This document shows positions 5,137 through 8,001 of a stretch of DNA of 62,476 nucleotides, one piece after another (within the stretch, counting starts at the first letter, position 1; the number at the start of each line of letters is the position of its first letter). A program made the translations under genes and the position numbers. The DNA is taken from contig JAVBOV010000040.1 of NCBI GenBank assembly GCA_031550205.1, positions 1-62,476 of the forward strand, given 5' to 3'. The notes below the pieces were generated by a model. The model was not told the origin of the DNA, searched no databases, and saw nothing but the letters and a program-made list of their open reading frames with translations. Origin of the DNA: Alphaproteobacteria bacterium. Its GTDB lineage: Bacteria; Pseudomonadota; Alphaproteobacteria; RF32; CAG-239.

Positions 5137-8001
5137 ATGAAAACGGGAAATATGACATATTTCAAAAATTTTAGGTTTAGGGCTTTGGGTTTGGCTTTGT
5201 TTGCCGCTTTGGCCTTGGTTAATTTTGCTTTTGCCGACGTTGCCGAAGAATGCGGCTCTTATGACCCGAAAAACCACAAACTTAACAACGAATGCCCGAC
5301 CGGAACCAGAAACGATATTTCAGCCAAGTGTTTAATGGATTTGAACAAAGACAATAAGACCTGTCTTAACACCATGCCGACAGATAATGTGGTGCGCGTG
5401 CCGGAAGACGTTTGCTTCAGAGGCGAAGGATGGAACAGAAAAAGAAACCACAATGCCATGGACTATGCAGCCGTGGCAGGAACGCCGATATATGCCGCCG
5501 CTGACGGAATTATTGACCATAAAGCTGACACAAATTCATGTACCAGCGGAGGCGGAAGAGGCGTATGGATGCTGCATGCCAAAGGCGGAAAAACCACAAA
5601 TATTAGAAATTTGCCAAAAAGCGAGCAGTATCAGACCATTTATCTGCACTTGTCGGAAGTTACTGTTGTCGTGGACTCTTTTGTTAAGAAAGGCACGCTT
5701 ATCGGCAAAATGGGCGGCTCCGACTGCAAGGACGGAAAGATTATTGAAAACGCCTACGGTTCCCACCTGCATTTTGAGATTAGAGACGGCAACGGACAGG
5801 TAATTAACCCAATGTGCGAAGGCGTACAGGAATTGTGCGGAAGCTCGGAGAAAATGGATACCAAAACCTGCCGCACAAATTGTAAGGAAAACCCCACCGC
5901 CTGCCAGGCAATCAGTTATGTGAACAAACCAACCGGAGCAGCAGCCGTAAGTTCTTCTTCGGCAAGCGCAGTGGAACAGTCAAAACGCTGCGATTATAAC
6001 AAATATTTATCAAGCTTTAAAAGCTGCATTTTCTGCGACGTTTTCACAATATTATTCAACACCGCCAGTTCCATCGCCGTTAAGGCTTATAATGTTTTTG
6101 CATATGCAATTCAGGGCGTGGTGATTGTGGGAATGGCCGTGTGGCTGGCTCTGCTGATTTTGAAATATATATCGGCCATGGAAGTTAAAGACCCGCGCAA
6201 GATGACCAAAGAGATATTAAACCAGGCCTTTGTGGTTTTGATGGTGATTATCTTTTTGCGCATGGATTCCGCAAGCTTTCTGGCAATTTTTATGGAGCCG
6301 ATATTTAATACCGGGTTTAAGCTGGCCAGAATTGCCTCTCACGGCGGAGCCTGCAATTATGCCGACTTTTCCATTTTAACCACCGGCGGCATTCCGGCAT
6401 CAATGGGCTTTGACATTGTCTGCACGGTCAGTGCCATTCAAGACAGAATCATCGGCGCAATGTCTATCGGTTCAACGCTGATGTGTATGGGCTTGTTTGA
6501 AAGATCGTGGCACTTTATTCCTATTTTTCCGCATCTGGGATTTTTGTTCAGCGGCATTTTGATTTGGATTTCAGCCTTTTTGCTTTTGGTGATATATCCG
6601 TGGCTGCTGATTAACTCGGTGCTGCAGCTCAGCGTGGCCGCCGCCCTGCTGCCAGCCGCCATCGGGTGTTATGCCTTCAAAATTACCAGAAAGCATGTAA
6701 CCAAAATTTTTGACACTTTTATGAATGCAATCTTCACTTTTGTGTTCTTATCAATCATCATCTATATCATTACAGCTCAGATAGAAGTGATTTTGGGCGA
6801 TGAGATGATTAAGTCTTTGAAAGATTCAAGCGTTAATAATGACGATCTGCTGCAAAACTTCAGCTGGACCGGAATGAAATTATTACATCTGGTATTTGTG
6901 CTGCTTTTGGGCTGGGCGGTTTTGGGTAAGACCAAAGAGTTTGCCGACGAGTTTGGCGGCGGACTGAAGATTACGGGAATTGGCGAAAGCGTCGGCGGAT
7001 TGGGCGCCAGCGCGGCGCACGGCGTGACTAAGCTCGGCATGAAAGCCGGCGGCGGAGCACTGAAATGGGGCGGAAGAAAAACCGGAAACGCCATTATCGG
7101 CGCAGTGGCTTCGGCAAGAGTTAAGCATATGTCAAACAAGATTAAGAACAACCAAAATGCCGTGACTAATGCCGACGGGTCGGTTACAGTTACTTCCAAA
7201 AACTGGAAGGGGCAGCAGGTTACCAGAACCCTTTCTCAGGGAGCTTCAGGCCAGAATCAAATTTTGAAGACCAGGGAAAAGAGAAACGGAAAAACCGTGC
7301 AGACCGCAACCGATAAATTTGCACGCATCAAAACCGTGCAAGATAAAAACGGCAACGAAATTCGCTCCAATGTGGTGATGACCTCAGCCATGGGCAAAAA
7401 CCTTTTGAACAAAGACGGCTCAATCAACACATTTGCAATGAACTATTTGCGCAAAAATTCCGGACATGATGCCGACACCATGAACCGCGTTATTTTGGAA
7501 AGGCTGATGAAAGAAAGGCTGCCGAATCTGAAGGGCGCTTCAATGAACAAGTCTTATAAGAGCATTAAGATTGAGACCAAGGAAGATGACCAGGGAAGAG
7601 AGACTTTCTCGGTGCGCATGGTTAATAAAAACGGAACAGAATCGGTGTTTAAGATGACGACCAATGAGGGCGGCGATAGAATAATGACCGAGTTTAGCCA
7701 GATTGATGCGGCCGGAAGATATGGTCTGACTCATTCCACAGACGGTATTATTAACAAACGTTCCGCATATGAGATGGACAAGGACGGAAAGATTATTGAG
7801 GGAAGCGAAGAAAATGAGTATTCCTTCACCGACTATTATTTGAGCCTGGGCGAAGGCAGACCGATTGACAGCTACGGCACAGTTGCCGATTATATTCCGG
7901 CGGGCAGCTCCATGTATGGCATTGATGACCGCGAGGAAATGAGCGAGCAGCACATTAAAAACCTTGGCCGCGGCGTTGATATGGACGAGTTTAGAAAATA
8001 A
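5137..8001 (+). CDS. M23/LytM peptidase domain fused to a VirB6/TrbL-like membrane domain, paralog 4
   Basis: 954 aa. Signal peptide LALFAALALVNFAFA|DV. M23 metallopeptidase motifs HNAMDYAA..GTPIYAAADG and GSHLHFEIRDG (about 5440..5815). Cys-rich linker. VirB6-like core (SCIFCDVFTILFNTA..KAY; LLPAAIGCYAFKITRKHVTKIFDTFMNAIFTFVF; G/A/K stretch), then a hydrophilic C-terminal extension of about 330 aa. Confidence 0.75.
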   Translation: MKTGNMTYFKNFRFRALGLALFAALALVNFAFADVAEECGSYDPKNHKLNNECPTGTRNDISAKCLMDLNKDNKTCLNTMPTDNVVRVPEDVCFRGEGWNRKRNHNAMDYAAVAGTPIYAAADGIIDHKADTNSCTSGGGRGVWMLHAKGGKTTNIRNLPKSEQYQTIYLHLSEVTVVVDSFVKKGTLIGKMGGSDCKDGKIIENAYGSHLHFEIRDGNGQVINPMCEGVQELCGSSEKMDTKTCRTNCKENPTACQAISYVNKPTGAAAVSSSSASAVEQSKRCDYNKYLSSFKSCIFCDVFTILFNTASSIAVKAYNVFAYAIQGVVIVGMAVWLALLILKYISAMEVKDPRKMTKEILNQAFVVLMVIIFLRMDSASFLAIFMEPIFNTGFKLARIASHGGACNYADFSILTTGGIPASMGFDIVCTVSAIQDRIIGAMSIGSTLMCMGLFERSWHFIPIFPHLGFLFSGILIWISAFLLLVIYPWLLINSVLQLSVAAALLPAAIGCYAFKITRKHVTKIFDTFMNAIFTFVFLSIIIYIITAQIEVILGDEMIKSLKDSSVNNDDLLQNFSWTGMKLLHLVFVLLLGWAVLGKTKEFADEFGGGLKITGIGESVGGLGASAAHGVTKLGMKAGGGALKWGGRKTGNAIIGAVASARVKHMSNKIKNNQNAVTNADGSVTVTSKNWKGQQVTRTLSQGASGQNQILKTREKRNGKTVQTATDKFARIKTVQDKNGNEIRSNVVMTSAMGKNLLNKDGSINTFAMNYLRKNSGHDADTMNRVILERLMKERLPNLKGASMNKSYKSIKIETKEDDQGRETFSVRMVNKNGTESVFKMTTNEGGDRIMTEFSQIDAAGRYGLTHSTDGIINKRSAYEMDKDGKIIEGSEENEYSFTDYYLSLGEGRPIDSYGTVADYIPAGSSMYGIDDREEMSEQHIKNLGRGVDMDEFRK

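Follow-up and report, generated by a model that had tools for sequence, protein, structure and literature searches.

A VirB6 paralog with a fused M23 peptidase domain in a type IV secretion locus of gut and rumen Alphaproteobacteria

The stretch of DNA considered here, contig JAVBOV010000040.1 of an alphaproteobacterial genome (62,476 nucleotides, called the window at its full length), encodes on its forward strand, at positions 5137..8001, a protein of 954 amino acids (aa; P0001) in which a signal peptide and a peptidoglycan peptidase domain of family M23, with all its catalytic residues, precede a VirB6-like helical core and a further folded domain of the clade's own. The gene is the fourth and last of four closely packed, tandem VirB6-like genes, and core genes of a VirB-type type IV secretion system (T4SS) are encoded alongside this array, in an order that is kept in relatives. 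We consider it somewhat more probable than an even chance (about 0.6) that the fusion gene is a VirB6 paralog of a chromosomal T4SS which carries the machine's own peptidoglycan endopeptidase, for local opening of the wall.

Domains of the fusion protein

The open reading frame (ORF) starts with ATG and runs through 954 codons with zero internal stops. A model of the full protein, built with AlphaFold2 (AF2) on 50 homologs and having a mean predicted local distance difference test score (pLDDT) of 83, consists of three folded domains and disordered linkers: a signal helix (aa 1-33), a beta-rich M23 part (about 40-250), a disordered stretch with pLDDT <50 (260-282), a helical hydrophobic core (287-607), a second disordered linker (608-649) and a beta-rich C-terminal domain (650-954), referred to below as the C-domain. 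The features of the gene, with the evidence in brackets, are the following.

5137..8001, forward strand: M23-VirB6-C-domain fusion protein, 954 aa, P0001 (ORF list, Pfam, homolog search, AF2)
5137..5235, forward strand: Sec signal peptide, aa 1-33, with a likely cleavage site between AFA and D (sequence reading, hydropathy, AF2)
5446..5811, forward strand: Peptidase_M23 domain, aa 104-225, within a folded span of about aa 40-250 (Pfam, genome scan, Foldseek, PDB profile)
5449-5451, 5461-5463, 5647-5649, 5764-5766 and 5770-5772, forward strand: catalytic residues H105, D109, H171, H210 and H212 (motif alignment)
5887..6024, forward strand: Cys-containing, partly disordered linker, aa 251-296, the site of a VgrG3-C lysozyme-like domain in longer orthologs (AF2, Pfam in orthologs)
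6025..6957, forward strand: VirB6/TrbL-like helical hydrophobic core, aa 297-607 (TrbL matches, Foldseek, hydropathy, invariant columns)
6958..7083, forward strand: Gly/Lys-rich disordered linker, aa 608-649 (AF2, composition)
7084..7998, forward strand: clade-specific C-domain, aa 650-954 (AF2, Foldseek, locus survey)

The N-terminus, MKTGNMTYFKNFRFRALGLALFAALALVNFAFA followed by DV, reads as a typical Sec signal peptide with an A-x-A site, in which hydropathy marks a hydrophobic segment at aa 12-30 and the AF2 model a helix at 7-26. Behind it, Pfam recognises Peptidase_M23 (PF01551) at aa 104-225 (E=3.2e-17; 62.9 bits, the cut-off being 28.7), and a six-frame scan of the genome gave 68.4 bits. 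The initial annotation, made from the letters of the window, had described a signal peptide and a complete-looking M23 domain with the motifs HNAMDY and GSHLHFE, and both were recovered. The zinc ligands are H105 and D109 (HNAMD, aa 105-109) together with H212, and the catalytic histidines are H171 in the third motif (YLHLS) and H210 (GSHLHFE, aa 208-214), so that the H-x3-D and H-x-H signatures are complete; the motifs align with those of zoocin A and TagE/Csd1. These five residues, and also E214, are invariant in 98 of 99 aligned homologs, at an overall identity of just 30-45%, and the sole exception is a protein without the whole N-terminus. From such invariance across diverged homologs the fused domain is probably an active enzyme, and a degenerate LytM domain was rejected on this ground.

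The M23 fold is modelled with confidence (pLDDT about 90-96 over aa 60-250), and a Foldseek comparison with the PDB matched it to some 40 M23 enzymes including Csd1/Csd2, ShyA, StM23, EnpA, lysostaphin and LytM (template modelling score, TM, of 0.78 for StM23; probability 1.00 for StM23, EnpA, LytM and lysostaphin). The LytM domains of EnvC and DipM are also among the matches. This leads to the alternative of a non-catalytic LytM module, which would serve as a peptidoglycan-binding anchor or stator for the stalk of the secretion machine or would activate another hydrolase, as EnvC, NlpD and DipM do. The VirB9 protein of the same locus ends with a peptidoglycan-binding SPOR domain, another contact with the wall, and anchoring to the wall may thus be a theme of the machine. 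Degenerate LytM factors such as EnvC and NlpD have lost metal ligands, whereas the three ligands and both catalytic histidines are retained here in 98 of 99 homologs, and for this reason we regard a non-catalytic role as improbable.

When the family alignment was used for a profile search of the PDB, NMB0315/NGO1686 and ShyA were found at E values of about 1e-22; with Csd1, they are the nearest solved relatives. Since these are Gram-negative DD-endopeptidases, cleavage of D-Ala-mDAP (meso-diaminopimelic acid) cross-links is the most likely chemistry of the fused domain. It is also from these closest solved relatives that another explanation can be derived: MepM, ShyA and Csd1-3 take part in growth and in shaping the cell, and the M23 part could likewise be a housekeeping endopeptidase that is just anchored in the membrane by a VirB6-derived domain, with no T4SS-specific role. 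The chances of this explanation appear small, in view of the conservation across the order of the fusion partner, of the position in the T4SS array and of the locus order, and of the five other M23 proteins in the genome, which score much higher against the family model. In a tree of M23 domains, which was poorly resolved and in which the row for the window's protein was spoiled by a spurious second domain match, the fused domains formed a group of their own, apart from the other M23 domains of the genome.

The helical core is accepted as a VirB6 homolog, even though this copy alone fails the Pfam threshold for TrbL (PF04610), because orthologs pass the cut-off of 25.9 bits (P0005 with 31.1, P0030 with 32.7, P0025 and P0086 each with 28.7 bits) and because Foldseek matched the AF2 model to TrwI, the VirB6 protein of R388 (8rt9_F at rank 42, E=3.9e-4, TM 0.58 on the target over 320 columns; also 8rtd_L). 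The six-frame genome search, with 21.5 bits (E=1e-4) for the same gene, is further support, although this score too is below the cut-off. The PDB profile search with the family alignment returned M23 entries only and did not retrieve TrwI. By its predicted fold and by orthology the protein is thus a member of the VirB6 family as well as of family M23, and the view of the initial annotation that an M23 domain is fused to the VirB6 core of the fourth paralog holds for a single continuous chain.

At least five hydrophobic helices and a periplasmic N-terminus are predicted from hydropathy, the AF2 model and the distribution of charge and Cys in 50 homologs. The net charges in these homologs (+2.3 for loop 514-533, -2.1 for loop 554-578 and +4.2 for the linker after the last helix) fit five membrane helices and a cytoplasmic C-terminal tail. 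In the cryo-EM structure of R388, the membrane-embedded part of VirB6 consists of just two N-proximal helices, and the remainder is the periplasmic, pentameric base of the stalk (PMC12857230). If this architecture applies, the C-domain would be in the periplasm. The label of inner-membrane channel subunit that was given to the protein at first has to be taken with some reserve in view of this structure. Reporter fusions in Agrobacterium tumefaciens reportedly gave an N-out topology for VirB6, and because of this topology and the signal peptide the M23 domain can be placed in the periplasm under either VirB6 architecture. The N-terminal region has 4.1 Cys per 100 residues in the 50 homologs, the central P2-like loop 3.9 and the C-domain 0.07; the high density in the N-terminal region fits an oxidising periplasm for the enzyme. 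The core opens with a CIFC pre-membrane motif. Both of its Cys, C297 and C300, and three Cys of the P2-like loop (aa 376-466) are invariant across the family, which points to disulfides that this VirB6 lineage has conserved in the periplasm. In all paralogs checked (P0001, P0002, P0004), a C-x-x-C or CIFC motif was seen directly before the first membrane helix.

The initial annotation had left out the C-domain, and also the interchangeable lysozyme-like module of relatives that is discussed below. The C-domain comprises 305 Cys-free residues with a positive charge, modelled as two antiparallel beta-meander sheets plus helices; when modelled separately, it reached a pLDDT of 93 and a predicted TM score (pTM) of 0.90. 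Foldseek found no structural relative in the PDB (best TM at most 0.26), and there was no Pfam family for it. It is kept in 78 of the 80 loci surveyed below and marks the hydrolase-bearing VirB6 paralog across the clade.

Conservation and exchange of hydrolase modules

A word-indexed search of 5.8 billion proteins yielded about 100 homologs that match over the full length and contain PF01551. They come from NCBI, ENA, Logan and JGI assemblies, and where they have a name in databases it is 'M23 family metallopeptidase'. The relatives are uncultured Alphaproteobacteria of gut and rumen, with records that include 'Azospirillum sp. 51_20', 'Candidatus Scatocola faecigallinarum' and RUG, UMGS and MGYG bins. 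We take their order in GTDB to be RF32. An ortholog was present in 195 of 201 genomes (1.1-2.0 Mb in size), covering all 22 sampled genera of the order. The same architecture, for which a database search had been proposed at the outset, was also recurrent in a survey of the locus in 80 species-level genomes. An artefact, whether through a frameshift or through the erroneous joining of separate M23 and VirB6 genes in the assembly, is thereby ruled out and retains a practically negligible probability, as the same continuous ORF occurs in the roughly 100 independent proteins from these four sources and in 69 of the 80 species-level genomes.

In the surveyed genomes, the VirB6 protein with the C-domain is encoded by the final gene of a tandem array that comprises four to six paralogs. 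Its architecture is M23-core-C-domain in 57 loci, with two more cut by contig ends; in eight loci a VgrG3-like C-terminal domain (PF21277, VgrG3C) is added to give M23-VgrG3C-core-C-domain, in four this domain stands alone in front of the core and C-domain, and nine have no hydrolase, some of these being truncated contigs. PF21277 is a lysozyme/GH46-like wall hydrolase module, and it occupies the same position in 12 of the 80 relatives. In two of these nine loci it is the third paralog and not the fourth that holds the M23 domain, which there follows the first part of the core (L045, 5448-8516; L051, 5699-9562), and the third paralog of L051 has an additional N-terminal VgrG3-C-like domain. 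Judging from these sequences, hydrolase modules have moved between VirB6 paralogs. That two classes of hydrolase, alone or together, occur on the VirB6 N-terminus and move between paralogs points to a module for wall cutting at the machine, and this exchange is the best evidence for the proposed machine-tethered role in wall opening.

Outside the order, about 400 genomes from the rest of the class gave core-to-core matches only, with the exception of G231, a GC-rich, small-genome alphaproteobacterium of a different family. Its protein of 659 aa (L099, C92:1-1980) has an intact M23 domain (72 bits) and a VirB6-like core, lacks the C-domain, and represents a second lineage with an M23-VirB6 fusion. 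In the M23-domain tree its domain joined a housekeeping M23 domain, a grouping of two long branches that is not trusted. A plasmid-borne counterpart was not detectable in PLSDB with this query, as tblastn gave matches to the M23 part only. Since the T4SS is nearly universal in the carrier family, it probably matters for the way of life of these widespread, uncultured gut and rumen bacteria with their small genomes.

A possible role in opening the wall, and its alternatives

In the mechanism that we propose, the signal peptide would export the N-terminus, and the disulfide-rich, catalytically complete M23 domain would reside in the periplasm, linked by a flexible stretch of about 50 residues to the first VirB6 membrane helix. 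In R388, VirB6 is a pentamer at the base of the central stalk, and it is there that VirB5 and the pilin assemble (PMC12857230). With VirB6 as the base of the stalk, the fused enzyme would be held where the stalk or pilus must cross the sacculus. The sacculus right above the stalk under assembly would then be within reach of the tethered domain, which would cut peptide cross-links and widen the mesh locally only. The M23 head would thus be a functional analogue or partner of VirB1, being an endopeptidase instead of a lytic transglycosylase, and fused instead of soluble.

The relation to VirB1 deserves attention, since the initial annotation had suggested that the domain could replace this enzyme. 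Its statement that the window has no VirB1-type lytic transglycosylase proved correct, and the contig as a whole is without a match to the lytic transglycosylase domain SLT (PF01464). The fusion protein itself has no SLT match either, and by its sequence it is at most an analogue of VirB1, not a member of that family. Elsewhere in the genome there are two SLT genes, encoding a 582-aa Slt70-like enzyme and a 256-aa secreted SLT protein (C30:7521-8291), the best NCBIfam matches of which are IagB and VirB1, both weak. The latter protein is a candidate stand-alone VirB1-like enzyme, which might act for the T4SS, for the type IVb pilus next to it, or for both systems. Because this IagB/VirB1-like protein is conserved, the M23 domain may complement a VirB1-like enzyme and not replace it. 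The idea of replacement is therefore supported as far as the contig is concerned, and is opposed by the SLT protein elsewhere and by the relatives that lack a hydrolase.

Several observations weigh against a wall-opening enzyme that belongs to the machine. The 256-aa SLT protein is present in 57 of 61 genomes of the family and is unlinked to the T4SS or pilus cluster, so that a dedicated endopeptidase is not obviously needed. In about one-ninth of the orthologs the paralog with the C-domain has no hydrolase, and the module is thus dispensable in some lineages. For the protein alone, the Pfam match to TrbL (aa 386-564, E=0.009) is at 16.3 bits, below the cut-off given above. Furthermore, the PF21277-type domain of relatives is best known as an antibacterial effector domain.

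This last point is the basis for a different explanation, in which the hydrolase modules are weapons that are released by cleavage of the linker, or shown on an extended stalk, and attack the wall of a neighbour, which would make the system a contact-dependent antibacterial or epibiotic T4SS. PF21277 is an effector domain of type VI secretion systems, the modules are exchanged between lineages as in polymorphic toxins, the linker that is predicted to be disordered could be cleaved, and the genomes are small. The location of the domain does not agree well with such a function, however: it is N-terminal, carries a Sec signal for export to the periplasm of the producer itself and is anchored on a subunit of the inner membrane or stalk base, and nothing suggests a route to a target. 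The known antibacterial effectors of T4SSs (X-Tfes) are separate proteins with C-terminal secretion signals. There is also no immunity-like gene before the downstream helix-turn-helix (HTH) regulator gene, the gap being 136 nt here and about 130-180 nt in most loci with VgrG3C. All in all, a weapon function appears unlikely.

A related and rather speculative idea, which we would give little chance, is that the tandem VirB6 paralogs form a mixed stalk platform of which the last member has an exchangeable wall-degrading head (M23, lysozyme-like, or both) that pierces the cell's own sacculus and, after extension or cleavage, also the wall of a bacterial partner or prey. If this were true, these gut Alphaproteobacteria with their small genomes would have, in their conserved T4SS, a machine for contact-dependent action between bacteria, with an enzyme built into the conduit.

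Returning to an endopeptidase that opens the producer's own wall, it is useful to compare the fusion with known systems. The initial annotation knew of no described M23-VirB6 fusion, and this agrees with a full-text literature search, in which neither a fusion of VirB6 with M23 or with any hydrolase nor the T4SS of this clade was found to be described. The protein resembles the extended VirB6 proteins, such as those of the tandem rvh arrays of Rickettsiales and the N-domain of TraG of the F plasmid, in its polytopic helical core, the presence of several tandem paralogs, the large hydrophilic extensions and the duplicated virB8 in the locus. It differs from them in that the N-terminal extension is a recognisable, complete enzyme (M23 with or without the lysozyme-like domain) behind a signal peptide, and in a C-domain without known relative. 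For the extra domains of extended VirB6 proteins the function is 'not yet known', and no enzymatic one is listed (2025 nomenclature review; PMC12857230).

What the fusion presumably has in common with VirB1 and other specialised lytic transglycosylases of class GAMMA (P19, TrbN) is the task of opening the sacculus locally so that the T4SS can be assembled. VirB1 is an SLT enzyme, soluble in the periplasm, and acts on glycan strands, whereas here an M23 metallo-endopeptidase, which would cut peptide cross-links, is fused to a core subunit, and there is no relation in sequence or fold. All known Gram-negative homologs of VirB1 are soluble SLT enzymes of class GAMMA, and hydrolases with several domains and a membrane anchor, for instance PrgK (LytM, SLT, CHAP), are a feature of Gram-positive bacteria (PMC12857230). 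The Gram-positive T4SS hydrolases (PrgK of pCF10, TraG of pIP501, CwlT of ICEBs1 and Orf14 of Tn916) are similar as membrane-tethered wall hydrolases with peptidase and muramidase modules, and PrgK has a LytM/M23 domain. They have a single-pass anchor, are separate from the VirB6-like subunit and belong to monoderms, whereas the present protein is VirB6-fused and from a diderm.

Among Gram-negative M23 DD-endopeptidases, ShyA of V. cholerae, NMB0315/NGO1686 of Neisseria, Csd1-3 of H. pylori and MepM of E. coli have the same HxxxD, YxHL and HxH set; they are free periplasmic enzymes or lipoproteins for growth and shape with LysM or coiled-coil regulatory domains, and none is fused to a secretion subunit. 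The phage proteins Gp16 (PDB 9m7n) and 'Internal protein' (9k2v) are alike in principle only, as M23 is built into a protein of a trans-envelope conduit; outside M23 they are unrelated, and they act on the target cell from outside.

Gram-negative T4SSs are taught to cross the wall by means of a soluble VirB1 transglycosylase, and the present locus offers an extended VirB6 of which the function of the extension can be read. It is a testable example of a secretion machine that would confine wall cutting to its own assembly site, and it shows in a diderm lineage the arrangement of tethered, modular hydrolases that had been described for Gram-positive T4SSs alone. All of these findings come from bioinformatics, databases already list the proteins under a generic name, and the fusion is common in the clade and not unique to the window.

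Locus and genome setting

The host genome is an assembly of 1.31 Mb in 88 contigs and about 96% complete. A six-frame search of the whole genome found these four TrbL/VirB6-like genes only. The three paralogs upstream of the fusion gene form an operon-like array with it, and domain scans found no hydrolase domain in them (2..5130).

2..1966, forward strand: first VirB6 paralog, 5'-truncated by the edge of the window (ORF list, TrbL scans)
1974..3305, forward strand: second VirB6 paralog (ORF list, TrbL scans)
3256..5130, forward strand: third VirB6 paralog (ORF list, TrbL scans)

The stop of the third paralog is separated by 6 nt from the start of the fusion gene. The listed TTG start of the third paralog gives an overlap of 50 nt with the second gene (3256-3305); an in-frame ATG 13 codons downstream (MANKAK...) would reduce the overlap to 11 nt and is the likelier start.

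The other VirB-type T4SS genes are on the minus strand at 16-41.6 kb of the window and comprise virB11, a split giant virB10, virB9 with its SPOR domain, two virB8 genes, virB4 and a gene for a VirB2-like pilin. Two VirD4-like genes are both on other contigs. Across the clade the VirB6 array is followed by the HTH regulator, an acidic Trp-rich protein, three further genes and virB11 on the opposite strand.

The start of the window itself falls inside the first VirB6 paralog. In many other species the contigs start about 1.5-2 kb upstream of the first VirB6 paralog, which puts the M23 gene at about 8 kb in each (loci L001-L020 and others), and this recurrence of contig starts points to a repeat, or to another element at which assemblies break, upstream of the array. 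Farther along the window, downstream of the pilus cluster, a PP2C phosphatase gene (57554-58312) overlaps a Ser/Thr protein kinase gene (58297-59751).

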